Counted from the stretch's first letter, positions 13,901-49,272 are shown. The stretch: 54,475 bases of DNA from Patellaria atrata CBS 101060 (GCA_010093705.1 MU006089.1:602607-657081), one strand, 5' to 3'. Numbers and translations: made by a program. The notes: generated by a model not told the origin, from the sequence alone.

Positions 13901-16562
13901 CACTATACTCCCCTGATGGGGAAGTGTCCGCGATTTTATTCGATGAGTCATGAACGCTTGAGCCGTCTGCGTAGTCTCCATGACTTGCCAAAGGTGTACT
14001 GACAGCAGTTTCGCTTGGTAAGCGTATTTCCTTCAGTAACTCTTCGAGATATCTTCTCGTTGCGTCTGGTGAGTCCCAATTGGTTTTCGCAGCTAGGTCC
14101 GGCGATACTGCAGACATCTGCTGTTGAAAGCCAAATACGGTTTCCGGAGTCAGAGTCTCAGGGTTGTGGTATTGCTCAAAGATACGATTTATGACGCTGT
14201 ATGTGTCATTGTCAAGTTTCTGGGGCGCATTTTTCGAATGGAATAGTGGATAACTGGGTATATGTGGCGACCAGTTACTTGTGTTGCCAATCCTTTGACC
14301 AAATGCCACGCTGATCGAGTCATCAGGTTTCAGAGAGTAATGAGGATTCTCAGTGTGACCGATATACCGCCGCTCTTCTTCGTCCCTAGGGCCTCTGTTA
14401 TCCATAGTATTAGGATCAACAAGGGAACTATCTCTCTCGGTTTTGTGGTCGGATTCACTAGGGTTACTCCAATCTTGACGTGCGCTCTGTAGAGCCGGTG
14501 TACTGTGCAGAATTATAGGGACAGTCTCCTCGTCCTTCTCCGATGCGAAGTCCTCAGCAAATTCGGTCCGAGTACCGCTTGATACGCTGCTTTGTCGCAT
14601 GCGCATGACATGGTTCAAAATCGAATCTTGCTGGTTCTCTACGTTTGTTATATCATCAATGGACTCACTTCCTATTCTGACAACGGGAATTCGTGGAGTC
14701 GCCATTGAAGATCGATCCTCATCTTGTTCATCAGGGCTTTCCGAAAATGGAGTATCCCCTTCAGGGAACGTACCAGGCATACCAAGGACTGGAGATTCGT
14801 CGTTTTCAAACTCTGTAGTCGCAGTCAAAGGTTCTTCATCGGCGGGTTTGGGAAGATCTGTGACATTCAAGCTAAGCTTTTCCGATATCCCCGGGGAGTC
14901 ATAAGTCCCATGCGTAAGGTTATGAACTCCAGCATCATTAGTGCCCTTGGTGGATCTATCCAGACTGGGTTTAGAATTGAAATCACGAAGAGAACCTTTG
15001 GACCGTGCATCCTGAGTATTCGCTAATTTTGCTTGCAATTGCGCTCTTCTTTGAGCAACTATGGTGTTGCCTATTCTTAACGCTGGAATATGGTGTTCCT
15101 GGGGAGAGACAGGTACCCGCGGAGGCGCTCTTCTCCCAATTGAGGATGATACTGGAAGCGATTGTCTTGCCCTTGAGGCAGCTGTAGACGCAGATGAAAC
15201 CGGTTGACGACCTTTTGAGCCTCGAAGTGGTGGAGATAGCTTTGGGGGTGGTACGATGATGTTGGCTTTAAGATTTTGATTTGAACTCAGGCCGGGGGAA
15301 CGGGCCCTGTGGGTTGGTTGGTAGCGGGATGATGAGAGTGTAGGTGGTGTGACGGGCCTGGTGTTTTCCTTTCCCGGAAGGACATGGTTCTGTTTGTCGG
15401 ATTGGGCTGACAACGGGAAATACTGATTGTTGTATCCAGGGGCGGAACTTGCAGGGGATTCGGGCTGAGATACGCTAGGTTCCGATCCATTGCCCTTGCG
15501 ACTAGTGGGAACAGGTATCCGGGATTGCTTCTGTTCGAATATACCGGATGAATTACGATGTCTTGAAGAGATAGGGCTTGTGGGAGTGAGAGGTATCTGG
15601 GATGAACCGTAAGTGATATGTCTATGATTGTCACTTTGCGATCTGTTATGGCCGTGTGCGGATGATGGGCGGTTTGGTTGGGGAATAGAAGATAATTGTG
15701 ATGAGTTAGGAAGAGGAGGAATTCCCACATCGGTCTGACTCTGTGAGAAGAGGAACGAAGAATTTGACTGGTATACACTGCCTTCCGAGCCTCGACGTGG
15801 ATTTCGTAGACTCGATATGCCATATCCTGCTTCTTGATGGTCCAATAAGCCAGACGTTGTTTCTCCGAATAACATTCGACGCGACGAATTGTTAGGATTT
15901 GTCGGTAGGCTGGGAGTAGACTTTACACCATTCTCAGCCACAGAATTGAGCGAAGTTCGCCTCCCGCGTTCAGTGGGCTTTTTAGAAGTTGAATGAGCCG
16001 TTCCCACAGCGTAAGCTCTCGGATTCTGATATTTCGATGATCCAAACTCATTCTCTTTCAATGGGTCAAGGCTAGCAGGCCGACTAACAGCGGGGCTAGA
16101 TGACTTACTTCCACTAGGTGTTCGTGTCCTATTAGGGCGAGTTGCGTTGTGCGATGGGCTCGTTTGCGCCGATTGATTAAACTGTTCGATGAGTGTTTTC
16201 GTCTTATTAGGTCCAGAGCGAACGGCCGAGGAAGATGGACCTGGAGGACCAGATGCCGACCTAACATATTTTCGAGGGCCGTTTCGAGCCGTCATTGTTC
16301 CACTTGCGGGGGCCGCAACTCTACGTTGAGCCGAAGCCATCGCACTCCCTGAATGATCGATACCAATTTCTCCTTCGTGAGACTGACTCTGATGGTCAAA
16401 CCCAGGGTGGCCAAAATCGCGATAGAAGTCATCTGGGTCTGCAAGAGTGTCCTCCGTATGAGAGGTATTCAGCGGCGCTCCATTTCTGTGCGGTGAAAAG
16501 CCGTATGGGTCGAAGTGGTTCACCTCGTTGCGGGACGAAAAGAAATCATTGTCGGGTTGCAT
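10916..16562 (-). CDS. Rho guanine nucleotide exchange factor, DH-BAR-SH3 architecture (dynamin-binding protein/Tuba/Gef1-like)
   Basis: 1828 aa ORF with DH motifs (KRQKIIGELVFTEHTFNQDM, LLVKPTQRLSKYPLLL), a helical BAR-like region (KRKKRLADYSK...ALNEALKIELP) and an SH3-like end (LFLAASLFEFNI...PGE | intron | VFDVIAQKGELWLAKNQDD...GWIWEKHF). Stop at 10916-10918. The exact start codon is uncertain. Confidence 0.88.
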
Positions 16563-17745
16563 CCTTTCTCACGGTAGAGAACATGCCTCGTACCGAGTTT
16601 TGCCCTCTCAACGCCACGACAGTCCAGGGTTCAGTATTATCTTCCCACTGGTCCACTGCCAGCACAATTCAAGAGAGGATCTTGGGCCCTGGCGAATTGG
16701 GTGACGGGTCCTTGGGCTCCAGGTGTCGAGCGCGAACAGTGAAAGGTCCTACCTCGTGGTGCCAGACGAGAGTCGCGAGCGAATGAAGTCGACAGGGTAG
16801 AATAGGCGTTCAAACTGTGTCAATAAGCACCCAGAGTGAACAACTCACACACGAAGGACGTTTTGGAAGCTTGGAGTTGGCAGTTGGCGGTGCATACAAG
16901 CATGGGCCAATAGCACGATTGAAGCGACAGGAAGAATAGCGCGCAGAGAACTCTAACGAGTCAAGCGCTTCGGGATTTGCACTTCAACGACTGGGACGTT
17001 GGTGATGTGTTGTCGACCAGAAGAAAATATGGATGAGGATGATACGATGATAGGATTAAGTCGAGGATATCTCACTGGTATGTTAACGTAGGAGGGGTTC
17101 AAGAGTAGAATACTAGCTGCATTTGCATTGGGATGGAGAAGGGTAAGGTAGGCAATTTCATGAGGCATAAATTATTACGATACTGAGGTGAGGTTGCTCG
17201 TACAGTAAGATTGGTGTTCTGAATTTGGCAGGGACACTACTCGTTAGAGTTAGGGGTCTTAGGTAGGATTTCTGTACGGTATCGTAAGGTATAAAGCACG
17301 GTACGGGACGGGAGGGAAAGTCATAACGAGGTGGCTCCTTCCTCACTTATGCACTTGTGGCTTCAAAGCTTTTGCTGTACCGATGTATAGGATGAGGTAG
17401 TAGAGGTACTGGTGGAGATATTTACCGTACCTCCCGTTTAAACCTATATACTTGTACTGTACAGTACAGCAATAATATAAAAGTTATTCCGTACGTCGTT
17501 CTATTGTGCAATTACGGAACGCTGCATCGATTTCTCAGCAGATGAGCGGAAGGTTTGTGGTGTGTCGAGTCGCACAACACTTCCACCAACTCGAAACTGC
17601 ATTCTCTTATGTATATGCAATCATAAGGTGCGCATATTTGATACAATAATAATCCTAGCGTGATGCAATCCCCACCTGGAGAAGGCTAGTTTTTCTCTCT
17701 TTGAAGCAACAAATTTCATGATTAAGCATTTCAGGACTCTTATCG

Positions 17746-25778: not shown

Positions 25779-27146
25779 CTACAACTTGCCCCCCAACCCC
25801 CTCAAAACCCCAACCGCGTCCCGCCTAACCCTCTCCACGACCTCCTTCGCCGCACAAACCTCCCTCACCAACCCAACCCCCGTCCCCGCATACATCGTCA
25901 GCCGTCCCTCGACCCCCCACCCCTCTTCCCCCTTNNNNNNNNNNNNNNNNNNNNNNNNNNNNNNNNNNNNNNNNNNNNNNNNNNNNNNNNNNNNNNNNNN
26001 NNNNNNNNNNNNNNNNNNNNNNNNNNNNNNNNNNNNNNNNNNNNAGCCTCCTCATATAACCGCCGGTTCTCAGCCAACTTCATCCCCCCCTCCGCGTCCT
26101 CCCAGCTCCGGTTCAACACACCCCGTCCCCCATACCCGGCCGGCCACTCCGGCGTCCCCCGCAGACTGTCATAAAGACGTGTTCGTAAGGTAGTAACGCC
26201 CCCGTCGCGCGTGGAGAGGAGCGCGCGCTGGTACCCCGCCGCGATGGAAGCTTCGTGCGTGCAGAGGAAGCGTGTGCCGACGGCGCCGCCGACGGCGCCG
26301 AGGGTTAGGGCGGCGGCGAGGGAGCGGCCGTCGGTTAGGCCGCCTGCTGCTATGAAGAGGGGGAGTTTGGGGGTGGGGTCGCGGGGGTTTTCTGAGGAGG
26401 AATAAGAGGTGGGAGAGGAAGAAGTGCATAATGCGGTCACGGCGTCGATGGTTTCAGGGACCAGGGTGACGATGCTGGCGCAGGCATTTAGGCCGTGCCC
26501 GCCGGCATCGGTGCCTTGCAGGACTAGGACGTCCGGGGAGCAGGACGAGACGATGGCGAGGGCGGACGTTACGGTGGAGGTTTGGATCCAGATTTTGGTG
26601 CGGTTTTGCGTGGTGCTGCGGACGGCGGTTGTCCAGGTTACGAGGGAGGGGAGGGAGGACGGGGCGAAGAACCATATTGCGGCGGGTGTGTGGAGTGTGA
26701 TGGCGGCAAGGAGGGAGGGGAGGGAGGCGCCGAAGTTGATTATGCCGATGCCGATTGGGAGGATGGCGGGGGAGGGGACGGGAAGGGGGGGAGAGAGGGA
26801 GGAGAGGAGGGTGGAGGCGTGGGTGAGGTGCGAGGATAGGGTGGAGAGGTCGGTGCCGCCGCCTATGAAGCCGATGCCCCCTGTGGGGAATTAGTTGGAG
26901 TGAGGAGGTCGAGTAAGGGGGTGGGTATAAGTGATGGGGATGAGGATAGGGTTAAAGGGGTGAAGAGGGGAATCGGGAACTGAGGAGAGTAATTGAAGCT
27001 GAAGAAGAGGGAATCAGACCGGCTTTGGAGATTTCAACGGCAAGAGGTGCGGCTGCTATGAGACGCATCGGTGCGCCGACTATGAGAGGTTGGCGGATCC
27101 ATGGGTAGTCAGTCTGGAGATTCGGTGGTTCTGGTGTTAGTGCCAT
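25779..27146 (-). CDS. Nitronate monooxygenase (2-nitropropane dioxygenase family, FMN TIM barrel); spans an assembly gap
   Basis: YPWIRQPLIVGAPMRLIA...VEISKA | GGIGFIGGG...VLVLQGTDAGGHG...LFIAAGGLTDGRSLAAALTLGAVGGAVGTRFL...YAGTGVGLV. One intron about 27019-26881; stop at 25779-25781. Confidence 0.9.
25935..26044. other. Assembly gap (110 N)
   Basis: Run of N characters. Confidence 1.
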
Positions 27147-27835
27147 GATGATGCTGTTTGTGAGAATACATGGTGGGGAAGCGTAGGGTATATATAAGTA
27201 CGGTAGTCATGTTAATAATAATAATTCGAGCTAGAGGAGGTGAGGTAGTTGAGGTTCGGGTTATGGATTTGTTAAGCACGTTAAGATAATTCCGCGGATC
27301 TAGAGCCGAGTGGTGCCGATCCGGGAAGGAGCCGACGCTTTAGTTCCCGAGGTCCAAGTCCTTGATCTATGGGGTCTCCTTTTTGATGTCCTCAATAGAC
27401 GATTAATACTGGAAGTCAACTCTACAGGAGGATATAGCTGTAAAAGTCTGTCCGGTTTCAGTTTAAGTATATTTAAACATCTTTCTCTGCATCACTCCAA
27501 GTTGTATTACTCTGCGTAAAGAGCAGGATGAGACTCCATGAAGGCCAATAGATATACGAAGTATTGATGAATCACAAGAGTCTTGTACGAAGTAATATCA
27601 GTTATTGTTCTTACGTGACCCAAAATCACTTTATGGTTGAACAACCAACGGATAAAAGAGGCCATATATCAGAATGTTAAAATAGCATCTCCAGTAACCT
27701 CAAAAGAATGAATAGCCCAAGACGCTATCATAGGTTTCCTGTATATCCATCCCTGGCTCTTCTCTCAATACATGCAAGATATCTCTGTCGGAAATGATTC
27801 AGAACGAATAGCTTACCATAACTCACCGGCATTAG

Positions 27836-29847
27836 TATCGTTTTCGTCCATGGTCCCTTGAGAAGCAGTCGAACATGGCGCATGAGAGACAAGGACGTTC
27901 CATGGCCGAGAGAACTTCTACCGAGTGCGACGTCCGATTCAAATATCAGTCCTCTCTTATGATCCGCATTTATCCTTCCAGGACTCCCACAATATGTGCA
28001 AGATATCACAGAAACTTTTGCGTTGTTTGCGCAAAAGCAGAGGAGAGCATGTAAGTTCAGCTAGGAATGGCGCTTTCGTATGCTAAATGCTCTATGAAGG
28101 TAGAACGGCTGATATTACTTGTAGCACATTCTCTGAGTGGGGCTATTGTAAAGTAGGTAGGTTACTGAGATCATATAATGAGTAATTTTAATGTGTGAAT
28201 AGGCTCTTGTTGGACAACTCACAGCCTTGCAGCGCACAATTACCAAGAATGTCATCGGGATCATATTCTTTGGGACACCACATATTAAATGAGACGTTGG
28301 GAGATCCCAAGATGCGCTCCACAAGATCACTTCAGCTTTTTAGGGAAAATCAGCTCCCTACATTCGATATCATGGTGAAGGAGCATTTCCCAGAAAGCCT
28401 CTCGCAACTGGATGTGGATTTCTCCATGCTCTTTAAGGCTCGGAGAAGACCTAATAATGCACAAACCTGACAGATCGTCTCATTCTATAATGAGCTTGAA
28501 ATTCCACGCATTGGCTTTGTATATTAGCACCCGTAATCTCTGGGGAGGTTACTAATCTTGTTTTCGCAGATCATGCCACCCATTAGTCTAGTTCGTCCTC
28601 CATTTAGAAGTTTAGGGCTTCCTACGGACTACGCAAGCTCGTCTTAGTTAACAAGTAAAACTGATATTGGATACGTTAGATTTATAGATGAGATCCAAAG
28701 GATCGTCGGCGACTCACTTGGTATCAACTCCCCTAATCTCTCATCAAAACCTATTACCTCCCTTGGCCCTTCTCTATTCAGCTTAAAACGTTCATTACTC
28801 CTATGGAAGAATCTCTACCAAGCGCAATACTTCCTGCGCGAAACAGTGGAGATTGTTAGTATTTTGGGTTCTGACACTGACTATGCGTACACATTTGAAA
28901 GAAAGCGCATGGCAAATGTGTATTTTGTTTGTTTCTTGAGGATGGCAGAGCGTGAACTTTGCACGCCTTTTGAAATGATTAAGGAGAATAAGTCCAGATA
29001 TGGAGACAATTTGCCCGAAACTGTGTCAACCTCTCTAGCACTGGTATATTTAGAACCAAACCGTCTCAGTGATGCCGAAGATCTCATTACCACTATCAGT
29101 GGACCAATCCAAGCAGATATCAGAGCCGCTTTGTGCTTCCGAAAATACAATTCTATGGAATCTCTAGAAATTCGCTCCAAGTTAGCAAACGCAGCAGAAA
29201 CCATGCACGGTAAGTCGAGCCTTATGGGACTACAATCCGCAACCTTCAGATCCCTAGTAGCTTTAGCCAGCGGGAAACAAACTGTTTTTGATATTATGAT
29301 CAACAAAGAGTCACGTTACAAATAATTACAGACGCCTTTTCTGGAACGCCTTCCGATCGTCCTCCGCCAGAAAGGTATCTTAGCTTTTTTGCTCCTGAAG
29401 AAACGCCGTTCCAACTTGCTACCGTCAAAGTCACTCAAACGGGAGGATGATTTGCAAAGGGCTACTAAGCTCGCATTCAACGCATCATATGGTTCGCGGG
29501 GAATCTATGCTTACCACGCGAGAAATCATGATGCGATATGTTCGATTTTCAGCGGACAACTATCAAAAGCACGTAATATCGCCACGGGTGTATCGGAAGA
29601 GTTGAAAGAGGCTGGTGCAGACCCCTCACATCCGCTATCAAGGGCATCACGATGGTTGATAGCAATGTTACAAGGGACAGACTCTTTGGAAGAACTTTTG
29701 ACGGTGATGGATCTAATGGCTTTTCTAGTAGACTGGGCCATTTCCAGCCAGTGGCTTCCGGACCTGATATTCAGTGGAGCGATATTCCACGAAGAAGAAG
29801 AGAGTCATGCGCTAAGTTACTCGCAAACAAGAGAGTATACGTCCTAA
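27836..29847 (+). pseudogene. Disrupted SesB/SERAC1-like alpha/beta hydrolase fused to TPR-like helical region
   Basis: IVFVHGP...TW...WPRELLP (frameshift near 27948) VLSYD..., ILLVAHSLSGAIVK* (nucleophile elbow; TAG 28154-28156), GIIFFGTPHIK* (TGA 28290-28292), IVSFYNE, TDIGYVRF (TAG 28645-28647 just before it). Then in frame LALVYLEPNRLSDAEDLI and HPLSRASRWLIA, with TAA at 29323-29325. True 5' end not resolved. Confidence 0.75.
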
Positions 29848-30263
29848 ACCTGGTGTTTCTTCATCTCGACCAAATTGAAAAGTGTCTACTCTATCAGATT
29901 CGTCACCCCTTGCTTACTTTACGAGCTATAGAACATTCTCTACATTGGCTCATTATTCCAAGAAAGCATGATCATTAAGGCAAAATACTGACCTTAATGC
30001 CGTGTTTAGCAGTAAGGCTTATATCCAACAAGGTACTACCCCAGTCTAACGAGATTTTGGCCTTGTACGAGTATTAGCGGTTCTTGAACAATGGATCAAC
30101 GATAGTGTCTTGAATTACTTTTTAGGTCGTGCACAGAAACTTCCTCTGGCGCAGAGACAATAGGGACCTGCCTAAAGCAAGTAAAGATTAACCTAAAGAA
30201 GACAGGGAAAAGATTTTTCTCTAACATTGAAAATCTAGAGTGGGCAATTTGAACACGATAGCA

Positions 30264-31620
30264 CTATTCCACCGACCACAATGTAGCAGCTTCAGACTTC
30301 CCTGAGATAAACTTTCCACCATCTGTCAAATTTAGAGCCGACTCCCTTTGCAAAAAAGATGGATCCGGGTCTCTTGTCGAATGTTCCATGCCTTTATTCT
30401 CTAGCAACGCTATGACGGCTATGTTATATATTTTGCAGGCGTCTGGTCGGTCGGTTGGTGTCGGTTGGAAACAGGCTCTCATCAGCACTTTCAAGTTTTC
30501 CGTATATTTATCGAACTGTCCCGATAAAATTGACTCTAGCTCCGTTTTTGGCATAGACCCTGAGCACATAAAGTAGATTGTACCTGCGTTGAGATCAAGT
30601 CAGTATTGTACGTTGACATGCTCATGGCCAAGTATAGCTTACATCTGCGAGAGTAGATATCGCGCTTCTCTGTCCATACGACTTTCGAGTTCCCCTCGCG
30701 AATTTCCTGATGTGTAGGGTAAGTGCTTGAATATATATATGCTTGTGATGATTTCAACTACTCTGTTGCTGTACGCTTGCTATACACGTACTAGAGGGTA
30801 TTCAATCTTGTATTTTCCATAGCTCTTTCAAGACATCTAACGTGGGGGCATGTATACCCTTTACATGGATCTTTCATCAGGTACAGGGTGCTAAATGTGT
30901 TCTTAAGATAGCACAGCGCTATGGTACAGGAAAGGGCAAGATGGAGAGAGGTACTCACCGGGGCAACGAAAGGATGGTTCCAATGTGTTTTGAAATCGGG
31001 ATGTTCTATTTTGAGTTCGACCGAGTGTCCAAAATCTCCCAGTTTAACACTAAGTTTACCATGAACGTCATAGAATAGGAAAACTAGGGTATGCATCGTA
31101 AGCGCCGTAACCGCTTGGAGAAGCTTTAGGTAGACCCACTATTGTCCGGTTTTATATCTCGGTGTAGGATCCGGCTCCGTTTTGAGAGATCCATTTTGGT
31201 ATCAATTTTAATGTCTTCGTTGGTCACATGTAAATATCTATAATGACAGTAGATGAGAGTTGAAGCAATTTGCTTTATATAGTGCCAGATATCCACTTCG
31301 TCAGGTTTCAAGCCCCGGGTTTCTAGATTACTGCACCAGGAAAGGAGATTTCCGTCTCTGCAGTATTCCATATAGATCTCACCAATCTTTGCATTCGATT
31401 TGGTGTATAGTAATTGAAGGTGCTTGTAACGAATAATGTAAGGATGCTCAAGCCTTCTTAACGACTCGTATTCGCTTTGAAGCTCCTCCGTCTGAGTACT
31501 CTTTGGAAGCATAACGTATTTACACGCAGCTTTCTATATCAATATCAGTAATGCTTGAAGATCGCTCCCCCGGAAAAGCATCTCGTCTCTTGTAGTCGCA
31601 CTCCCGACTTATAGTACGCT
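30264..31620 (-). pseudogene. Ser/Thr protein kinase (NIMA/Nek-like motifs), probably degenerate
   Basis: Exons give AACKY (subdomain II Lys), EYESLRRLEHPYIIRY, IYMEYCRDGNL, ILHRDIKPDN|I, VKLGDFG, PFVAP|E, KRDIYSRRC (normally DIYSLGC) and RACFQPTPTDRP. No intact Gly-rich loop or first exon was found, and the candidate upstream exon contains a TAA. The activation-segment IGT lies in a shifted frame. Confidence 0.75.
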
Positions 31621-32055
31621 TATGACAGGAAAACTTGGGACGTGTGCTGTATAGGTCCATAAGATTTCACAAGAGGATACAAATTCAACAGTGTTCCGTG
31701 GCGTGTACAACAAGCGTACTGTATAGTGAATTATCGAGAAGTGCTATGACATGGAAAAAGAGATTACATACATGGTCATCCGAGATTCTCTCAGCTACTA
31801 CAATATTGCCGCCGATTCTCTAGTCAGTGGTCCGATAAAGAATCTTGAGCACTTCTCGGTGAGGATACCTTTCCACTGTTAAGAGTAAAGAAGCGATAGC
31901 CTATCGGAAGATGTATGGTCTTAGTGTCAACAGACGTCGTAATCCTTCGCACCGTCTAACGCGTACTCATAGTGGAGCCGAAGTTTTTATTCTAAGAGCA
32001 ACTATACAGCAAGCCGAGAGTACCACGGAAAAGCCGATACGAACTCTTTCCAGCT

Positions 32056-33743
32056 ATGGCAGAAATCTTTACCATTATCGCCTTTCCGGTTGCAGCCTAT
32101 CAGACCATCGAAAAGTTCTATCAATTTGGACAGTATGTTCATAGGAAGTTGGAGGTGGACAGGACCACTCGACCGGAAATTGAGGCAATTCGTGAACATA
32201 TGAAGAGCCTTTCGGAAGGAAGTATTAAAAAGAATATGGAGAGAACGAAGTGGGTCTTCGAGTAAGACCATATTGTACAGAGCACTAAAATGAAGATAGA
32301 AGATAAGCTCAAAAAGTTACTTGAAACCCTAAAAGTGATTGGAGACGCTGTAGAGAAATCGATCGACAAAAGTGGAGAATTGAAAAAATTGAAATACACC
32401 CTTTTCTACGAAAGGAACATGAAGAAGGCTGTCAATGAACTTGAGATATGGGAAACTAAGTTCTGGCACCTCCATACTATCAACATAGACGAGAACTTAC
32501 CAGGTACTCACCTACTCGCTGGATCTCATTTCGCACCTGTTAAGGGAAGGGGCGGGATCTGGCCATCGGCCGTACCTCCACTACTCCGCTTGGTTATGCT
32601 GAGTACAAGGAAATGGGTAAGTTCCGAGAAGTCTGCGTATTGATTGAACGCACCCAGGCAGTCGAAGAGGACGGCCTTCCACTAATGTCACGGGGCAGGT
32701 TATTCTATAGAGGAAGATCGAAGAGCTGTAGTGGAAGAGGCAAAGGCTATTGCAGCTGATCTTACAGGAAAACTCCATGAGACTATAAGGGGACTTGCGA
32801 CTGGAGGCATCCTAAGATGCTTAGGATACCGAGATTATCCTATGACCGAACTCATATTTGAAGTTCCTGAAGGATGCGCCATAAACCCACGAACATTGAG
32901 GCAGATTCTTACTGAAGGTCGGGGCGGGAACCATAACAATATACTAGCGCCCTGGAATTTCAGAAATAGATGAATTAGTGAGGTCGCTTTTACAATGTAT
33001 GCTGTTAATGCTGCAGGATATGTTCATAAAAACCTGTCCCGATAACATTATCATGTTTTCTAAAGAATCTCGTTCGGACTTGCAAGACAGCTCGATGATG
33101 TTCCCTTTCAAAGATCTCGGCCCGGCATATCTTATGGGATTGCGTCTAGTTCGGAAAGTGGATATGGCCTCCCATCGTTACGGTGATGACGACTGAACCA
33201 AGAACTTCTACCGTCACCCTAAGCGACAGGGCATTTCACCCCAAGACCGTTACGAGCCTAAACATGACGTGTACAGTCTGGGGGTTTGCCTCCTCGAATT
33301 CGGACTCTGGGAGTCATTCATTGTAGAGGAAGATGGTGAACCTGCTCTCAGCAAGTATTTCCTCGATGCTGCAGAGGAACATGCTGGATGCCCCCCATCT
33401 AAATTTGGAGACTTCAACCGTCCACAGGGCGAGAGATATAGCAAAATGACCCCATTATGCTGTAGCTACCAGCTCAAAGACGTCTTTGTAAAGATCGCCG
33501 AGGCCCGACTTCCTCAACACATGGGGACTGACTTCACCGAAAAGGTTGTACGATGTTTGAGTAATGTAGAAGACTTTATTTTGAATGATATTATGCTGGA
33601 GGAACGGAATATTCTTGAGTGATGGCCCTTTAAGTGATCTGGATTGTGCCGGGAAAGGAAATGAAGTCCTAAATTTTATCACCTCCTTTGTTACGCTGGA
33701 TACTTCTCGATCGCTGGTCATTGGTTGTACTGGACCTAAATAG
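32056..33743 (+). pseudogene. Disrupted HeLo-like N-terminal domain plus kinase-like domain protein (fungal 'het-s domain' kinase-like family, MLKL-like architecture)
   Basis: Hydrophobic N-terminal helix MAEIFTIIAFPVAAYQTIEKFYQFG, then a helical bundle (KLKYTLF...KKAVNELEIW). C-terminal family motifs GILRCLGYR, GYVHKN/xPDNII, AYLMG, D*TKNFYRHPKRQG, HDVYSLGVCLLEFGLWESF, LPQHMG...VVRCL. Stops at 32263-32265, 32971-32973 and 33194-33196, plus frameshifts near 32550, 32700, 33030 and 33620. Confidence 0.78.
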
Positions 33744-34188
33744 TGCAGGTCAGGGACTCGTTTTAACGATCATTAGCACTGGCTATCCATCGTTATAGTA
33801 ATACGAAGGACATATTTGTCCTGTGGTTATGAACAAGATAGTATCACTATCTCGTGGTAGGTAGTGCTTTCAGGAATTAAGATGGCGACACAGGCGATGA
33901 GGACTAAGGTAACGTAGTTCTGGCTTTAACGCCGATTTGGGCTTAGTGTAGAAAAGATAGCTTAGTCATTCAAATTCTTTCATCCCAAGTTCCCGACGCG
34001 GTATCGAACAGACGTCAGGTCTCTTCACAAAAATATATACCTTATTAAGTCATTGGATCCCCTTTGACCTCAACTCTTCACGTTTGGGACGTCACGTTTT
34101 TTATTCAGCCATTATTATCATCACGTACTTTCGTTGGATTTTGAAATTTGTCACTTTGGTTACGGCTGTACACTTTTGGTTCACAAAG

Positions 34189-34934
34189 ATGAATGCGCCG
34201 GATAGGTGTGTATCTCAGAAATTCACTTTTACATACACCAGTTCTACTATCTCGCCACTTCCTTCCAAAACAATTCTGGGGTCTTCACAACTTCGCGCTT
34301 TCCAAATTCAACCTCCTCACACCCCGCCATGACGCACACTCTTTCTCAATCCTTTCCTTGCCCACCCCACTCTCTACTTTCTCCCGTTCACGAAACTTCT
34401 TCCAAATGACGATCTACACTCTATCCAAACTCGCCGGCGAAAACGGCGTGGGCAGGAGAGCAAAGTATAGGTCCGGCGGCAATATGAAAGCTGACCTTCC
34501 GGCCGACAGATTCGAGCTGTTCCTCCTCGGCGATGGCGAGAAGAAAGTAACCTGGGCGCTCGACACCCGTACGCTTCTCTCTTCCCACTTTCCACCCTAT
34601 CATCCCTCTATAGCAACGCTAATATCTACTTGTTTGATCTTATTTAGGCGTCCCTAATACTGCGATTTTCACGTTCAACAAAGAGGATCATACTCTCGGC
34701 AACCTACTCTCGTCGCGCTTACACAAGTACCCCACTATCAAGTTCTCCGCGTACATCATTCCGCATCCCCTCAAACCCTCGTTCGATCTCCGTGTCACCA
34801 CCGACGGCTCAATCACCCCACGTGATGCTATTGTTCAGGCCTGCCGAGATGTCGTTCAAGATCTTGAAGTCCTTAGCCGTGAATTCACAAAGGAGTGGGA
34901 GCTGAAGAAAATTACTAACATTGGAAGAGATTGA
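34189..34934 (+). CDS. RPB11: DNA-directed RNA polymerase II subunit RPB11
   Basis: MNAPDR | FELFLLGDGEKKVTWALDT | RVPNTAIFTFNKEDHTLGNLL...AYIIPHPL...FTKEWELKK. Introns 34206-34509 and about 34569-34648. Confidence 0.96.
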
Positions 34935-35380: not shown

Positions 35381-36178
35381 CTACTCCACCTGGATCTTCC
35401 TTGGTGTGAAGTTCTCAGCCTTGGGCACAACGATGCTCAAGATACCGTTCTTCAAGCTTGCCTTGACAGCGTCATGGTTGACCCTAGCCGGGAAGCTGAA
35501 TGAGCGGCTGAATGATCCAATCGCGCGTTCCGAGACCCAGTACCTGTCTTCATCTTCTTCCTCTTGCTGGTGCTGTTCTCCTTCCTTGCCGGAATGATTC
35601 TCCTGTGCTCTCGTGGCAACAGTGTTCTCAGTTGAAGCATCGGCGGCTGGCTTCTCGGATCCGTCTTCAGCCTCCTCAGAGACGCTAGGACGGTGATATT
35701 CGTGAGCCGAAGGTGCTTCTCCATTCGCGCCGGAAGCGTTCGCTTGTGACTGCTCCCCCGACTCAGTCACTTGCTTCTGCTGCTCACCACCTTGGATAGC
35801 ACCAGAAGCCTGGGCTTCCGGCCTCCTTCCGCGCTCCGAGCGGTGCTCAGTGCGACCGGAAACGGTGAGGGTATTGTCGTCCGTCCACTCGATGCTCAAG
35901 TTCTCCGACTCGATGCCCGGCAGCTCGCCGTGCAGCTCGTAGGCGTCTTTGATCTCGCGAACGTCGAAGGACGGGTTGAAGGTGCGCATCTGCTGCGGCA
36001 TGCTGCGCGTGACGGTGTTGGCGTAGTCGTCTAGAATGCGGAAGAGAGGTGCTACTTCCTGGAAGGGGCTGTAGTTGCCGTAGCCGCGCGGGAAGAGAGA
36101 CATGCTGCGCACCGGTCCGCCGTATTGAGAACCGGACTTGTTGATGCGGGAGAGGGGTAGTCTGGCTGAGCGGTACAT
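35381..36178 (-). CDS. hsp30: Small heat-shock protein (Hsp20/Hsp30, alpha-crystallin domain)
   Basis: Intronless 265 aa ORF. FNPSFDVREIKDAYELHGELPGI...TLTVSGR and YWVSERAIGSFSRSFSFPARVNHDAVKASLKNGILSIVVPK flank an acidic insert typical of fungal Hsp30. Confidence 0.93.
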   Translation of the reverse strand: MYRSARLPLSRINKSGSQYGGPVRSMSLFPRGYGNYSPFQEVAPLFRILDDYANTVTRSMPQQMRTFNPSFDVREIKDAYELHGELPGIESENLSIEWTDDNTLTVSGRTEHRSERGRRPEAQASGAIQGGEQQKQVTESGEQSQANASGANGEAPSAHEYHRPSVSEEAEDGSEKPAADASTENTVATRAQENHSGKEGEQHQQEEEDEDRYWVSERAIGSFSRSFSFPARVNHDAVKASLKNGILSIVVPKAENFTPRKIQVE

Positions 36179-36312
36179 TTTGAATGTTGGTGTGTTGAGG
36201 ATGGTTTTTAGAGAAGTTGTTGAGCGCGTTTTGAAAGCTTAAGAGTAGATTGCTGATTGTTGCTGGCTCTGATTTCTGATGATGGGGAGTTATGGTGGTG
36301 GTTGGAGGGTAA

Positions 36313-38134: not shown

Positions 38135-38792
38135 ATGCCAAAGGAGGTAAAGCAGAAGAGCGGCCTCGCCGTGTAAGATTCCAATGTCTCCCACCAATGA
38201 ACACCAAACTAACGCTCTTTCACAGAGGCCTCAACGCTGGTCACGTACGTAAAATTTGTAGTGTCGCGCAGATGTCCTACAGGATAAGAGAAGACTGACG
38301 GATTTGGACGATTACAGAAAGTCACACCACGCCAATCGAAACCTCGTGTGTCGAGGACCAAGGGACACTTGTCGAAGAGGACTGCGTTTGTTAGAGAGGT
38401 CGTGAAGGAGGTTTCTGGGTAAGCGGCGCTCCCAAACCCATATACTCCCTCCGTGAGGGACGGAAAAACCAGGAGAGTGTTACAGTTCGAAGGATATGGA
38501 TGACTGAGTATATTTTAGCCTCGCACCCTATGAGCGCCGCGTTGTCGAACTTTTACGAAATAGCAAGGATAAGCGCGCCAGGAAGTTGGCGAAGAAGAGG
38601 GTATGTCTTCTCCGCCCTTGCACACAATCTATATACCCTGTCCCTAGTACCTTTAAAGAGACACACAAAATCGAGAAAAAAACGAGAACACAAAAAACTG
38701 ATATTTCCAAGCTCGGAACCTTCGGCCGCGCTAAGCGCAAGGTCGACGAGATGACCAAGGTCATCGCCGAATCTAGACGGGCTGGTCACTAA
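38135..38792 (+). CDS. RPL36: 60S ribosomal protein L36 (eL36), 4 introns
   Basis: Spliced [106 protein letters not shown]. Confidence 0.97.
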
Positions 38793-41490: not shown

Positions 41491-42610
41491 ATGACGACCG
41501 TAAAGATAACTTCCCCTGCTCAATTCAACAATCTACTCTCCCAGTCAAGGGTCGTGGTGGTGGATTGTAAGTCCAGACTTGCCTGAGTGCTGACTCCCGG
41601 CTGATTCTGTTTGCTATCTAGTTTTCGCAGACTGGTGTGCGCCATGCAAGGTGATTGCCCCGGTCTATGAGCAGCTATCCGCTCAGCTATCGAGACCGAA
41701 TCGAGTTACCTTCACAAAAGTCAACGTGGACGAGCAAACACAGATCGCACAGCAGTATGGCATCTCAAGGTAGGCAGGACGGGAGCAACATCTACTGTAC
41801 GGGCAAAGTTCTGACTGGCGTACCAGTATACCTACCTTTATGATCTTCAAGAACGGACAGGAAGCGGCGAAGATACGCGGGGCAAAAGCGAAAGACCTCT
41901 CCGATGCAGTCAAAAAGCTCGCGGCTGAAGCCGAATCAAGCGATGGGACATCCGCGTCAGGATTCGCGTCAAGTTCAGGCTTAGGGTCATCATGGCGCGG
42001 TTTTGATCTTCCACGATCTTATGTGGATGTAACAGATCAAATAGACTCTAGAGGAATAGACTTGCTCAACTCAGATGCGGAATTCGGGAGTGGCAGCACC
42101 CTATTCAGCACAGGGAAACCAAGTAGCTTAGAATCACCAAAGGGCAAAGGACCAGCAAAATCGGCTGCCGTAAAACCGGATTGGATAGAAAGTGACACTG
42201 ATGAGCAGCTAATGCTCTTCATTCCCTTTCAATCTATGTTAAAGATCCATTCGCTCCAACTGACCTCCATCCGTCCAACATCTTCAGAAGATGACAGTGA
42301 CGAACTACCTATGCGACCCAAAACACTCAAGCTGTACACAAACAGAGCAAGAAATCTAGGATTCGAAGAGGCGGATGATATACCTACAACTCAGACAATT
42401 GAGCTCAGTCCACAAGACTGGGATGAAAAGACTGCGACTGCAAATGTTCAGCTTCGATTTGTCAAGTTCCAGAATATAACATCACTAGTAATATTCGTCG
42501 TGGATGGTGATGGAGATAGTGAAAAGACAAGGTTGGATAGGATTAGGATTATTGGTGAGAGTGGTGAAAAACGCGAGATGGGCAAACTGGAAAAGCCAGG
42601 TGATGAATAG
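41491..42610 (+). CDS. TXL1: Thioredoxin-like protein with C-terminal PITH domain (TXNL1/Txl1 type)
   Basis: VVVDF|FADWCAPCKVIAP...FTKVNVDEQ...|IPTFMIFKNG (thioredoxin fold, two introns), then WIESDTDEQLMLFIPFQ...LRFVKFQNITSLVIFV...KTRLDRIRIIG (PITH). Confidence 0.92.
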
Positions 42611-45600
42611 AGGGTTGGATCATTCGCGGCAGCGATTATTTCTGGCTTATCCATAGTAGGTCAAAAGCATTGCAATCAATAAATGAGTAGGAATATATCT
42701 AAAGATCAGGTTTTCATCGCCTTGCGGTTTTCGGCTTGATGATACCAAACTTAACATTGAAGGGATGGGATAATGGATTTGTTCTGCCTTTGACGCATGA
42801 CAAAGCCACTCAACAGGCAGAGTCATATGTTGGTCAATAGCTGATGTGCAATATATTTATTCTGTGACGCAACTGACACTTGAGTTATCACCATTGACGA
42901 GGTGGACAAGTAACACGGGTTGATAGATGCGTCGCCGCACAATGAAGAAAAGGAAAGGAAGAAAATCCTTTTCAGAATTTTCATAGAAATGGGAAGAGTG
43001 CTTAGTCACCGAGATTCACCGCTTGACTATTCATGGGTTAGCGCAAATCCACAACCACTTCGTGATAGAATTCTTGTTGCGACCTCACATCCTTTCTATC
43101 AAGGCCGGTGATGAACGATACATTTGTATCAAATCAATAATAGGAAGAGAATGACTTGGCTATGCTGAGGTTGATCTCAACAGACACTTTTCTGAGGCCT
43201 AACGAACTGTCCCACGCGGTGAAATGCCTACCGGTACTCATCAAGATATTCTTAGAATTTCTTCTAGCGATAGCAATGCATTATTTCCAGTCAGATATTT
43301 TGAGTTCTTCTTGAAAGCTCATTGATTACTCTTTATTTCAGAAATATAACAGAGGATAGAGATCGAGACTGCCGTAAACTTTCACTGAAATTTTGCCTCT
43401 ACCTTCTATACCAATATTCATTCAATATCACTGCAAAGAACCCGCTAACCGTACTCTCAGGATTGAGCATTACACCAACTATCAAACCTACAATGACATT
43501 TCATCATTCATTCATTCATACGCTTCTCCGTCGACCCTAGGGGTGTAGAGAAAGCCGTAGAAATTGAACAAACAGTAAGGTTCTCTGAAGAAAGCAGTTT
43601 ATATACAAAATATCAGTACGTGGACCTGTTTTCAATACTAGAACTAGATATTCATTTTATCTTAAGCTAGCTTTCTATTTCTTCTATTCGTACTAAAACT
43701 CCTGCGAGTTTCCATAGTGTGGTAAGCGCCTTTCTGTTCTCATTCTTTAGTTAACATCGGAACATTATTGCTAGTCCCCGAAATGAAGGAATTAATATTA
43801 TAAGTCGACATCTTTGGTATGGTTCAATATTGGAAACTTAAGTAAGAAAGAGCAAGGAACGACGTCGTCTGGCATTAACTTCAATTATTTCATATCATTC
43901 GAATACGGGAGATATTTGTAGTTACTGTTTATACGCATTTTGCGGTTTCGACCGGCCTATACAGGTATAATTTCAGCTGGTTCCTATTCGCAACATATCA
44001 CATCCACCTCCAAGTTTGTATCACTTGAGCACTCGTAGATGTCAGTAACTCGCATTATGAACAGAGGCCAGTGTACACCATTACAAGTCAATGTCAATGA
44101 AATTTTAGAGAACTTTCGGGAGTGAGAAAGGAATATGAAGTCACTTTCTACAATTGCAACTTTCATATACCGCTTGTATTATAGGCTCGATGAATTCTAT
44201 TCTGCTCTGGGAGTGTCACTTACTGCAGGAGCTAGCTACAAGGTGAACTGATCCGCCGGACATTGTCAACCACTACGCCATGTTGACTCTTATTGTTCAT
44301 GTGTAAGACCCAAGAACAGTGCGACAGACAGCCAGAGAGAGTTGACGTTACCTTTAGTACGACTATGGAGTTGTCAGTACAGTCGTGATGAATAGGGTAG
44401 AAGAAGAGAGACAGGTAAACGGGTAAGTTTCATTCTAGCATCAAAGTTCGCCGTATTCCTGTTAGTACTTGGTAAGCAATAATTGCCATACGCTGGCGTG
44501 CTTGTCAACCCAAAGTCTCAGCACAAAGCGGCCGAACCATCGATAAGGTCAAGGTCTCAACACACTGTCAAAACCAAATCGAAAGCTATGGTCATGTTAC
44601 GACCTTCTACAATGATAACATGAGGTGGCACGGCTGGTCATGAACGTCAAGCGGCGAGAGCCGGCACTGAAGTACAAACTCAACGGTCATGATTCGGTTG
44701 CTGTATCCACCGTCTCGCACTCTCGTGGAAAAAGATTCCAGTCCTTTGAATTTTATGAAAATCATCCTCGATTCAACTGCGAGGCTTCCAAATTGCCGAA
44801 TTGGTGGCGCCACAACACCGTTCTTTTGGGAATTCCATCTTTCCATGGACCCGACAAGAGGCAATTGTGGGGATAAGCGGCGAGACAAACTCGTATGAAG
44901 GCTTTTAAACTGTTAGAGGATAAAACACGACCTGGCGAAAAACGCTCGGTACCGGTACCCACTTAGTGCGGAAGTCATAATCTCGCGGGCTCGGGACACA
45001 TGGAATTCCTTCCACATATCGTGGGCCCCCGGTTCTGTGGCGTTTTCCCGAAGAAAATTCGAATCTTAAACTTCCTGTTTGAGAGAAAATGTTCGAGCGC
45101 GGCTGAACACTTGGACGGATACTGTGGATTCAAAGCCTTGACGTACTAGTATGGGTTATCGTCAGAGTGGGATGTGAGAGTGGGAACCGTTTTGACTGCG
45201 TGGCCTCTCCCACCCAAAAGGATCAGTGATGAGTTTCAGCAGTAGCTGCAGAAGGATATGCAAAATTCTGATGCGTACCTGCATTGATGAACGACCGGAA
45301 AAAGGACACGGACATTCCCTGACACATAAAGTTTTTCTTTTTGCACCGTCGAGACATCTTAACATCGTTACCAAGATACTGACTCTTTAACATATCATGA
45401 GAGTCACGACACGAACTATTTCCCCAGCTTCGGAAGGTCATTATTACTGAATCCACGCGGCCCGTCGCGGGAACATCAGCTTAGAGCCGTTGAGAGTCAG
45501 CGACGCTGACTCTCTATCAAAAATTCATGATGAGCCGAGGAACGATCTGTAAGAATTTACGCAATCTCGTCAAATTGATAAGGTAGATCTGTGGGGAGGA

Positions 45601-48600
45601 ATCAAACCCTTCGCTCAGGCTGAATTGGTATGAAAACTAAGGAAGCCAAAACCTCTTCCCCGGCGCCGTCCAACACGCTTTGATGGCACTAAAGAGGTCG
45701 ATAACCCACGATTCCCACATCTCGGAACCATTGCTAGAGGGAAGGCAATTCCAAGGGTCTGCTCGCGGAGTCGCGGGCACGCGGATATCGCCAAGTTTCG
45801 ACGGTTTTCTCCTCTTTGCGAATTCGAGTGTCTGCCCAGTCGACCCCTCAGCTAAAATGAAAGAAAGAAAAAGCCAAAGATGATGATTACTGTGAAGCGT
45901 TTATCTCGTGAAACTTATCGTCGTTGTGCGATTCTCTGTACCTGCAGCGTTCCTGCATTAGGCACATACCACTGCATAATAGGCACTTATCAAACAAAAT
46001 TGATTCTCACCAGGTACGAAAGATGTTATTCGTCAATTTCGACTGGCTTTCTCACCGTCCAATCAAGAAATCTGGTGGAGAGATTGATAGACCGCTTTAC
46101 CGATAGACCGATAGGCTGATGTTCTGGAATTCGTTCAATCAGCGTCCCAAAAAAGCATAAAAGGAAATTAATGCATTAATGCAAGTGTCTCTGAGCGCAC
46201 AGTGGCATAACGTCCACCGAAGACTGGTGGAGTTATGGACCGGTATATCCAAACTTTGTGCACATGTTGCTCTTCAAAAGCAGCGACATCACCATTCCTA
46301 AACTGGTCATAGGCCGTGTCAAGGGTATTCTGCTCATGCAATCCTTATGCGAATTGTGCTCCCTCGCCTTGTCTTTGTTCGTGTTTCCTCGTACTTGACC
46401 CCAAAATAGACGTGCGAAGATTCACGAAAGGATGTACATGCTGGGTTAGTGCATGAAGAAATAACATGAGAAACTTAATATTTACAACCCTCGCTATAGA
46501 TAATTTGTGCGGATATGGTGGGGTCATCAATCTTACATCGCGACAATCATCATAATCTATCCGTCAACTAACTCAACTTCATTTGCTATCTCCAGAACTG
46601 CTTTTTCCTCAGGATATTGGGTAAACCTTTCAGTCATGGCTCCTATTCGAGTGGAAAAGAGACGCATCGGGTCAGCGGTTGGGCTACGAATTTGGGTAGG
46701 ACGGTTATTCCTCAGCACCATGATACGTCAACTGAGAAGATCTTTTTGGAATCTTGCCACTGGAACTTTTCTCCCACCTTGAGCCTGAGAAAGACGATGA
46801 AACAGTCGGTTCGGAGGGTCCCTGGACCGCTTAGAGAATCCTTCAAGATGTGAGGACGGATGTTTAGGAAACATTTTTACAGGCAACGGGGAGGCAAAAC
46901 GGAGCGGAGGCTGCCTACCAACCAGCATGAAAGTTGACCCTCCATGATACTCTTTTGTGTCTCAAGTCGCTACCGTGTCGTTCGAGAAGTTGGCAACCGA
47001 TCCAATATTTCACCCCACACGAGTAAGAAAACAACCGACGTGGAAGTCCACGGCGTATCGCGATGGATGAAGTCGAAGTTTCTGCAGCTTGCAGAGTGCT
47101 TTGCAGAGAGACTGCAGATTTACTAGAGCAGGTACCTTTGTACCTGCAGAAGATGGGCGCTGAACGAGAATCCAAACACCGAACTCTACACTTCCCCACA
47201 AATGATGATGTAGGGTCCAGAAGATGAGGAGTATTACAGTGGTGATGTTCCTGAATTGTCGTCTTCCATGACGGCAATCAGCATTTTAGATCTTCGTCTT
47301 GCATTGATGGTGGGATTTGATGTTGCAGAGACGAGCAAGTCGCTCGTTCGAAACAGTTGAGCCGCGGTTCAGGTGAGAGCCGGCGCGGATGTTGAAGCTG
47401 AGCATTATCTGACCACCACCATCGGAAGATTTCAAAGACAGACAAAAGAAGATGTGGAGAGAAAAAGTTTTTTTTTGATACAGTTAATACATATCGATAA
47501 CGACGATAGGAGATATGATAGGGACCGCTCTGTCGGCGTCAATTCCACTTGCTTTTACAATATCCCACATGGCAGGACGCATTTCCCAAAACAACCCAAC
47601 TTCTGGCCTGAGAGCGCTTTACTAACCAACCTAAGTCGTCCTTAAAGTCACTTCGGCATGCTATGGATTACTATTGGGGACGGGTGCATCCACAAGTGTG
47701 TGATAGTGTCCTGATAGGCGGTTGAGGAAAGCTGAATCCCAGTCCATAGTCTTTGTTGCACGGCCTCGATGCAGACCTCCGTAAGCTACTATTTCGTTGC
47801 CGCACAGCTACGATCAGAAGACAGAAAAGAAGCACAGAAATCACACTGCCACCGCTTCTGGACGAGTTGGTTGGTTTAAGAGAATCCGAGTCTTTAACGA
47901 ATTACTATCAAGAGCACATTGCAGAAGATGTTTTCGCCATCAGCTTCGTTCTTTTCCAGCTGTGGCTACGCCGTTGATCTATGGGTCTCGAGTACTGTAC
48001 GTTTATTTTCTTTGACGGTGTTGTCCGGTTGACCTGATGATATCTTTTCAGGTTAAAGTTCGACTTTCTTTTGGCTACGGTAGCCGGTCTATAAAACTTA
48101 TTCATGGAGATTATGCAGAACGCTAAGGTTTCACATACCAACAAGTTGTGCTAGTTTGGAAGGTGACGATGAAGCATAGGACGCATAACGCGATGCATAT
48201 GAGCGTGGGTCAGAAAATTGTGGGTGTGTGTCGGTCGCAATCTCTAGACCTGGCACAAGTGTGCTCTCTGGTGCTCTTCTGGTGCCCTCCGGTGCCTCTG
48301 GTCAGTCTGGTGGCATCTTGGGTATGCTGTCAGCCAATATGAATGCATGCCTTTTGTGTACGAGGTGGCATAAAATAGTGCCGCGCGTCTTGCTGCTCTA
48401 ATGGCGGCCTCAGTTGTCTCTTCATACAGGCACTATCTTCCTAGGACCTTACCTGGATTCGCGAGTCATATTTCACAGTCACAGAATAATCATTGCATTA
48501 GTTCCAGGCAGGGGGGCTCAATGTTCGCCTGCACCTTGACCAGTAGTGCCCAGCAGCCCAGCATAGTAACCAGTCTGTGCCAGTGGAGTTGGGTTAACTT

Positions 48601-49272
48601 TGGGGCCTGGTGCTGCGCCTTCATCGTCCTTCCCGGTCCCCCCTCCCACAGTGTTCGACCAATTCCGTTCCTGGGGTCTTGCGGTGCCTGGTCATCTTTT
48701 CTTCTTCAGTCCTAATCATCGTCTCGTCTCTCGCTGATCTCCTCTTTACTTATCCACGGCTTATCCCTCCACTCGTTGTCTTTTCCTTGCTACGGTTTAT
48801 CAACCTCGTCATTCGCACCCAGCATTTCTTCTTTCTTCTTTTTTTTACAGCCGTTTTTGTGCTTCACTCTTTTGGTTTACAGTCTACTAGCTTGTTCTAT
48901 TAAACAGCTTGTCAGATTGTTACCTTGCCCTTCCTTAGGAACCATTTCCATAACTCAACTATCCATCGACATATGACCCTCGACACTCGACCTTATAAAT
49001 CTTTACTATTAGATAGCATACAGATCACCTGTTGCTATTGTCCAGTCATTCTTTAAAGACATACTTCTCATATTTATCTTTCTGTACTATTGCCAGCGTG
49101 GCATATATACTGTACAAATATTAATTCTCCGCGACGAAGTGTTGGATACTAGACAACAGAAATCAATAGGTCGAATACTATATTAAACGAATAAGTATGT
49201 GACCCTCTTCGAGATAGAAACATTCGGTTGTTGGAATATGAGATTTCCTATTGATATGGGGTTAACATTTAT

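Follow-up and report, generated by a model that had tools for sequence, protein, structure and literature searches.

Are three damaged genes that stand side by side in a fungal chromosome the remains of one lost cell-death system, or relics of unrelated genes? We asked this of a stretch of DNA from Patellaria atrata CBS 101060 (GCA_010093705.1 MU006089.1:602607-657081), the whole of which, 54,475 nucleotides, is called the window hereafter. In it, the 6.6 kb between the genes of nitronate monooxygenase (NMO) and RPB11 hold three adjacent gene relics. A reading of the sequence alone, the original prediction, had described them as a SesB-like hydrolase with tetratricopeptide repeats (TPR), a Ser/Thr kinase, and a HeLo-like pseudokinase, all carrying stops, frameshifts, or broken motifs, and had proposed that they once formed a single cell-death module. 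Their placement between NMO and RPB11 is confirmed, since Pfam names both flanking genes. As for their nature, the interval is probably an ordinary decaying accessory-gene island, in which two genes are certain to be pseudogenes and the third, the kinase gene, is damaged or doubtful. The three genes are as follows, with the evidence for each in brackets.

27822-28283, plus strand: gene 1, 5' part, putative remnant of an alpha/beta-hydrolase-like domain (frame translations, motifs)
28285-29847, plus strand: gene 1, 3' part, once a coding frame, no domain assigned, probably helical (stop counts)
30264-31533, minus strand: gene 2, a Ser/Thr kinase closest to NEK (Pfam, PDB, splicing by script)
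32056-33622, plus strand: gene 3, a pseudogene of a family that joins a helical bundle to a pseudokinase by way of a long helix (tblastn, family profile)

Gene 3 is a pseudogene

A word-based search with gene 3 returned P0001, an intact relative of 536 aa (E 3e-48). In tblastn, this protein aligns in two pieces: residues 1-322, all in one frame, match 32056-33036 with 36% identity (332 columns), and residues 324-507, in the next frame, match 33038-33571 with 55% (184 columns). We also built a hidden Markov model from the alignment of 51 full-length relatives of gene 3 (alignment A1) and scanned the three forward frames with it, where it matched with E 1e-63 and 1e-58. Positions 1-309 of the model fall in one frame, positions 171-210 in a second (around 32553-32667), and positions 311-489 in a third. 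There are thus frameshifts near 32545, 32680, and 33037, and in-frame stops at 32263 (TAA), 32971 (TGA), and 33194 (TGA, at a tryptophan conserved in the family). Since homology to the family is continuous across the stops and the frame jumps, these are lesions and not introns. Gene 3 is hence a definite pseudogene, with three stops and three frameshifts in about 1.57 kb, and its decay, which the original prediction had noticed, is established against both an intact relative and a 51-member profile. The 151 query proteins that we searched against the window gave no match outside 31900-33800, i.e., neither a second copy of the family nor a paralogue link to gene 2.

P0043, an entry of 141 aa in a public representative protein library, is 100% identical to 33197-33619 and begins right after the stop at 33194. 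Its identity to a fragment of the pseudogene shows that pieces of pseudogenes are being catalogued as proteins.

A large fungal family with a dead kinase fold

Before its decay, the product of gene 3 had about 520 aa and belonged to a fungal family of very large size, in which a short N-terminal helix of hydrophobic character comes before the bundle and the kinase fold is catalytically dead. An exhaustive HMMER search with P0001 retrieved 2078 cluster representatives with E<=1e-3, of which 860 reach 1e-10 and 80 reach 1e-30. The AlphaFold2 model of P0001 computed on A1 has a mean predicted local distance difference test score (pLDDT) of 87.2 and a predicted template modelling score (pTM) of 0.76. 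It shows helices at residues 2-9, 14-33, 40-54, 56-69, and 75-102, then a long helix at 111-147 and, after it, a kinase fold. Compared with the PDB by Foldseek, the latter gave at least 500 matches at E<=0.001, with phosphorylase kinase gamma 2 on top (E 7e-7). At the HRD position, the members of A1 read H-K-[N/S]: the lysine is present in 51/51, and the aspartate is replaced by N in 36, by S in 12, and by other residues in 3, so that no member has D. DFG is absent, and a conserved VLIE (E in 47/51) would be located at the site of the beta3 lysine. The family carries the signatures V-H-K-[N/S]-I-R-P and Y-R-H-P-x-R-Q-G, and the copy in the window reads VHKNL ahead of its frameshift. The kinase fold without its HRD aspartate gives good support to the pseudokinase of the original prediction.

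Pfam families cover only this kinase-like half. Among the 51 relatives (E<=0.01), weak matches to Pkinase were found in 29, to PK_Tyr_Ser-Thr in 23, and to DUF7580 in 15. In 78 further relatives with divergent N-termini (E<=0.001), the same families were the only recurrent ones (43, 31, and 13 members, respectively). DUF7580 (PF24476) maps over the kinase-like C-terminal half, e.g., over residues 258-503 of P0019. This protein clears the curated cut-off (28.1 against 27 bits), most relatives fall below it, and the decayed copy of gene 3 itself has no DUF7580 match at E<=0.01. In the alignment of these 78 relatives (A3), one member matches Herpes_heli_pri (E 2.5e-35), and single members match DUF7571, DUF6428, and Cu-oxidase_2; these extra domains are probably fused or chimeric library predictions. 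A full-text literature search for the name DUF7580 returned nothing. Likewise, the accessible parts of the literature, of reviews, and of surveys of NOD-like receptors (NLRs) contain no description of a fungal family of bundle and pseudokinase, or of this trio of genes, which is not proof of absence.

The layout of the family resembles that of MLKL

The N-terminal half of gene 3 had been called HeLo-like. In the frames of the window, there is no match at E<=0.01 to the Pfam families HeLo (PF14479), SesA, Goodbye, or PigL_N, the present name of PF17111, formerly Helo_like_N. None of the 129 relatives, at the thresholds given above for the two sets of 51 and 78, matches any of these four families, nor NACHT, TPR, or hydrolase families. 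When 30 relatives were scanned at E up to 1, a single one had a match to PigL_N, below threshold (E 0.064). We then modelled P0059, a protein of 170 aa that corresponds to an N-terminal fragment, with 35 relatives aligned (pLDDT 85.9, pTM 0.79). Foldseek listed 231 matches of this model in the PDB, none of them at E<=0.001. Other four-helix bundles come out best, namely the FAT domain (E 1.1, template modelling score, TM, 0.54 by target length) and p130Cas. MLKL (4btf) has rank 9 and is not significant (E 2.9, probability 0.30, 126 columns, root-mean-square deviation 5.0, TM 0.38 by query length), and HET-s is not among the best 50 of the 231. A search of P0059 against PDB sequences gave a best E of 1.2, with unrelated proteins.

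Small or hydrophobic residues predominate in the first ~13 alignment positions of the family, and such a start is described for HeLo-type domains (PMC10197012). The layout of the modelled family resembles that of MLKL. With no Pfam match in the window or in the relatives and no fold match at the threshold, the HeLo-like label, and with it membership of the HeLo/HeLo-like superfamily, is unproven.

Gene 1 is a dead gene with putative hydrolase-type motifs

The 3' part of gene 1 (28285-29847) has 5 stops per 520 codons in one frame, against 30 per 520 in each other frame. This deficit shows that the frame was once coding, and as it now bears nonsense codons the decay seen in the original prediction is real. 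In-frame stops are found at 28468 (TGA), 28645 (TAG), and 29323 (TAA), with a terminal stop at 29845. Two of the five stops fall in a candidate intron of 51 nt at 28519-28569 (GTATAT...CGCAG, with a TACTAAT branch site), and the stop at 29323 could be excised by a candidate intron of 174 nt at 29210-29383 (GTAAGT...TAG).

In the 5' part, four motifs follow each other on the plus strand, with one occurrence each: VFVHG (27840), WPRELL (27903), HSLSG (28127), and GTPH (28272). Elsewhere in the six frames of the window, VFVHG and WPRxLL do not occur, HSxxG occurs twice, and GTPH once. Candidate introns at 28051-28099 (49 nt) and 28157-28202 (46 nt) join the pieces in phase. An in-frame TAG at 28154 ends the exon after ...HSLSGAIVK, and apparent frame jumps near 27943 and 28284 are not explicable as introns; these frameshift calls come from a motif consensus and not from the output of a tool. 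No start codon was found in the 5' part. Gene 1, with about four stops, about two frameshifts, and no start codon, is dead.

We tentatively assign this order of motifs to the lipase-like domain of SesB/DUF676 type that fungal NLRs carry, an assumption that no tool confirmed. The nucleophile elbow reads AHSLSG in place of G-x-S-x-G, i.e., the serine is retained and the first glycine is lost, and VFVHG is present upstream. Pfam returned no family on whole read-through frames, nor, with E up to 10 allowed, on pieces put in their correct frame. There are no relatives of the 5' part among 1317 word-sharing candidates, nor any match to it among PDB sequences; for the 3' part, none of the 7338 word-sharing candidates is a relative, and the best PDB sequence match is not significant (E 0.79). 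The 3' 400 residues are thus without a detectable relative. In the Atlas, a piece of 46 aa gave a weak lead (rank 28, score 0.77) to a cluster with DUF676 in 11% of its members. A piece of 225 aa had a recognition of 1457, below the mark of 2300, and matched bacterial clusters. A cluster with TPR_14 in 12% of its members appeared at rank 28 only, for a query of sub-threshold recognition. The repeats that the original prediction placed in gene 1 thus find no support, since no TPR family matches by Pfam even at E up to 10, and the SesB-like label, with no match in profile, PDB, or word searches, is unproven and comes down to the motif order. Having no Pfam NOD domain, and no Walker A (GxxxxGK[ST]) in any plus-strand frame, gene 1 is not an NLR. 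It may once have encoded a domain of alpha/beta-hydrolase type followed by about 500 residues of helical sequence.

At the 5' end of gene 1 there is also a pair of direct repeats of 23 nt with 83% identity (27761-27783 and 27985-28007, 224 bp apart), which is probably due to chance.

Gene 2 is a spliced kinase gene that lacks a recognizable 5' end

The coding frame of gene 2 is spread over four exons on the minus strand.

31533-31140, minus strand: exon A
31139-31084, minus strand: intron 1, 56 nt (donor GTGGGT, acceptor TAG)
31083-30959, minus strand: exon B
30958-30707, minus strand: intron 2, 252 nt (donor GTGAGT, acceptor CAG)
30706-30643, minus strand: exon C
30642-30584, minus strand: intron 3, 59 nt (donor GTAAGC, acceptor CAG, TACTGAC branch-like site)
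30583-30264, minus strand: exon D

Once spliced, it has 903 nt and 300 codons with no internal stop, and it ends on a TAG at 30264-30266. As the changes of frame coincide with canonical introns, most of the apparent stops and frameshifts are ordinary splicing. The view that all three genes carry stops or frameshifts is therefore right for genes 1 and 3 and overstated for gene 2.

The identification of a Ser/Thr kinase stands, with a match to Pfam Pkinase (PF00069) of E 9e-12 and 45.4 bits, above the curated cut-off of 31.7, in an open frame of 135 aa. The match spans positions 27-125 only of the 263 of the profile. The exons encode the beta3 lysine (AACK), HRDIKPDN, DFG, AP|E across a splice junction, DIYSRRC, and DRP. 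Unusual residues are NHP in place of the usual GTP and SRRC in place of SxGC. Among PDB sequences, the four best matches of the N-terminal part include CDPK (E 2.5e-4) and NEK2 (E 5e-4). With the C-terminal part, 10/10 rows hold a NEK7 sequence (best E 0.25). The insert between the alphaC-to-alphaE end and HRD presumably follows the NEK style.

Upstream of exon A, where the glycine loop and the start codon would be expected, we scanned 31534-31950, within the 520 bp that lead to gene 3, and found no GxGxxG loop and no usable start exon in any minus frame. All three minus-strand frames are filled with stops, a TAG stands immediately upstream of the exon (31534-31536), and the only candidate exon with an ATG start and a donor end in our enumeration of donors and frames has 4 codons. 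Gene 2 would thus be a young pseudogene whose 5' end is damaged, or else a gene whose 5' exon escaped recognition. A Walker-A-like GKFISGKS at 30317 (minus strand), in the C-terminal tail of the kinase gene, is isolated and probably a chance occurrence.

Flanking genes and mode of decay

The window is a gene-dense chromosome segment of eukaryotic (fungal) type, with short introns. Genes on both sides of the island were identified by Pfam on long open frames.

25898-27206, minus strand: nitronate monooxygenase (NMO)
34638-34931, plus strand: RPB11
35381-36238, minus strand: Hsp20
about 38315-38606: ribosomal protein L36e
11076-16568: RhoGEF-BAR protein, an unbroken frame of 1830 codons
Other open frames of the window: Zn-cluster-type transcription factor; Pam17; telomerase reverse transcriptase; RabGAP; UBX protein; PITH protein; C2H2 zinc-finger protein; diphthamide-synthase-like protein

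These genes are intact, as the original prediction had stated: they have long open frames and strong Pfam matches, and the in-frame stops that we checked are intronic. The two stops in question, at 3885 and 49951, sit within canonical-looking introns. These introns (3876-3923 and about 49925-49996) split the long frames of a Fungal_trans_2 factor and of the C2H2 zinc-finger protein, two genes that look intact. Inside the NMO gene there is a run of 110 N (25935-26044), an assembly gap which shows that the assembly is a draft. Another stretch of 6.6 kb, at 42600-49250, has no open frame of at least 130 codons and no Pfam family at E<=0.001 in six read-through frames. A second region poor in genes or decayed is one possibility, and the presence of intron-rich or lineage-specific genes is another.

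Neither repeat-induced point mutation (RIP) nor an origin in a mobile element finds support. RIP is usually called from thresholds of about 0.89 for TpA/ApT and 1.03 for (CpA+TpG)/(ApC+GpT). In the island, these indices are 0.87 and 1.14, close to the 0.73-0.77 and 1.11-1.15 of the flanks, so RIP is not the cause of the decay. The GC content of the island is 0.43, slightly lower than in the flanks (0.48-0.49). As for an origin in a mobile element, the search returned the single 23-nt repeat pair described above, no flanking or inverted repeats, and no Rfam families. The decay would then be the ordinary neutral decay of dispensable genes.

Three unrelated relics or one lost module

We favor a small accessory-gene island that would hold the relics of three unrelated genes, with no present function as a unit, and in which gene 2 would be a NEK-like Ser/Thr kinase with a core still open when spliced. 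Several points weigh against this reading. The 903 coding bases and six splice sites of gene 2 carry no disabling lesion, when the lesion density in genes 1 and 3 (12 per about 3.6 kb) predicts about 3 (Poisson P(0) about 0.05 by our own arithmetic). Hence, gene 2 may be alive or a much younger pseudogene, at odds with three relics of equal standing. Genes 2 (minus strand) and 3 (plus strand) are head-to-head, with 522 bp of shared upstream region (31534-32055), an arrangement that a co-regulated pair would show. Moreover, we infer the dispensability of the genes, their status as an island, and the age of the decay, and the hydrolase identity of gene 1 would follow from motifs only. The lesion-free core bears directly on whether gene 2 is a living gene, with an unseen 5' exon or as an N-terminally short kinase-like protein, between two unrelated pseudogenes. 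Its 300-codon stop-free spliced frame, its canonical donors and acceptors, the branch-like site in intron 3, and the conserved beta3 lysine, HRD, DFG, and APE are what a living gene would show, but we consider this possible and less likely, given the lack of a glycine-rich loop or plausible start exon in the 520 bp before gene 3, the replacements of GTP and SxGC, and a Pfam match restricted to part of the profile. It is very improbable that the three genes are intact and that their lesions come from errors of sequencing or assembly. The assembly is a draft with a gap in NMO, and frameshifts are a typical type of error, but about 7 of the lesions are stop codons of substitution type and not indels, and the neighboring genes are unaffected, including the unbroken 1830-codon frame, which speaks against a general problem with indel errors. 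The 100% identity of P0043 to 33197-33619 goes in the same direction, weakly, as this entry possibly derives from the same assembly.

The reading closest to the original prediction makes the hydrolase protein (a sensor or effector), the kinase, and the bundle-pseudokinase parts of one cell-death pathway that was lost as a whole. In this pathway, the kinase would phosphorylate the pseudokinase and free a membrane-damaging bundle, by analogy with what RIPK3 does to MLKL. The adjacency of the three genes is in its favor, to which our analysis adds the head-to-head arrangement of genes 2 and 3. The family of gene 3 has a bundle, a long helix, and a pseudokinase, like MLKL, which is itself among the weak fold matches, and its N-terminal start is mostly small and hydrophobic. 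In the published work, fungal immune-type genes are often clustered (PMC12258605), and all three classes of genes occur in fungal nonself-recognition repertoires (PMC4986451, PMC9815663, PMC10197012). Yet no hydrolase, TPR, NACHT/NOD, or HeLo-type Pfam domain is fused to any of the 129 relatives of gene 3, the MLKL fold match is not significant and scores below a FAT-domain bundle, and gene 1 has no TPR, NOD, or sensor-type repeats. The kinase lacks an ATP-binding loop, and its core is undamaged whereas genes 1 and 3 are full of lesions, so that the three genes have no obvious shared age of decay. We thus regard a common module as unlikely, and any role of these genes in cell death is something we infer. 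As it stands, the island would be a small graveyard of dispensable genes, of a kind that fungal genomes often have, and its interest is local. More interest lies in the large family of gene 3, the best lead here, which joins a bundle to a pseudokinase and has no functional annotation.

Comparison with known systems

The motif order of gene 1 would be typical of hydrolases of the SesB-like/DUF676/PGAP1 type. Compared with SesB-like effectors of NLRs, gene 1 has no profile match, an altered elbow (AHSLSG), no NACHT/NB-ARC domain, and no TPR/ANK/WD40 repeats after the hydrolase-like part. For gene 2, the matches to NEK kinases are weak and the glycine loop is missing, so that membership in NEK is not established.

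Among the gene classes of nonself recognition in fungi are those with HeLo and HeLo-like domains (PMC12881547, PMC9815663). With the HeLo/HELL domains that HET-S and HELLP carry, the family of gene 3 shares an N-terminal helical domain that starts with a small and hydrophobic run. It differs from them in having no Pfam match and no C-terminal amyloid motif, and no partner NLR was seen.

MLKL is described as a four-helix bundle (4HB)/HeLo domain, a brace, and a pseudokinase (PMC12881547; for plant MLKLs 10.1101/681015), and a review of 2025 mentions bona fide homologues, in its section 18, for plants only (PMC12881547). The family of gene 3 differs from MLKL in that its N-terminus has no detectable sequence relation, its pseudokinase has a signature of its own, and the copy in the window is dead. 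It resembles the animal and plant MLKL in the order of its parts: a bundle, a long helix (111-147 in P0001), and a kinase fold without the catalytic aspartate. Besides, where RIPK3 acts on MLKL, here a kinase gene adjoins gene 3. It is thus conceivable, though quite improbable, that the family of gene 3 (at least 2078 clusters) would be the fungal counterpart of MLKL, and the NEK-like kinase transcribed divergently from the shared 522 bp its activator, in which case the window has kept such a pair as a dead copy. If true, a necroptosis-like switch driven by phosphorylation would exist, or would once have existed, in filamentous fungi next to the known amyloid-driven HeLo systems, and the hydrolase gene would be a third and possibly unrelated neighbor of the kinase/pseudokinase pair. 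The same review, in its section 18, urges a wider exploration of HeLo/4HB proteins in fungi (PMC12881547). If it turned out that the N-terminal bundle of the gene 3 family acts on membranes and is controlled through the pseudokinase, the question of these proteins in fungi would become directly testable.

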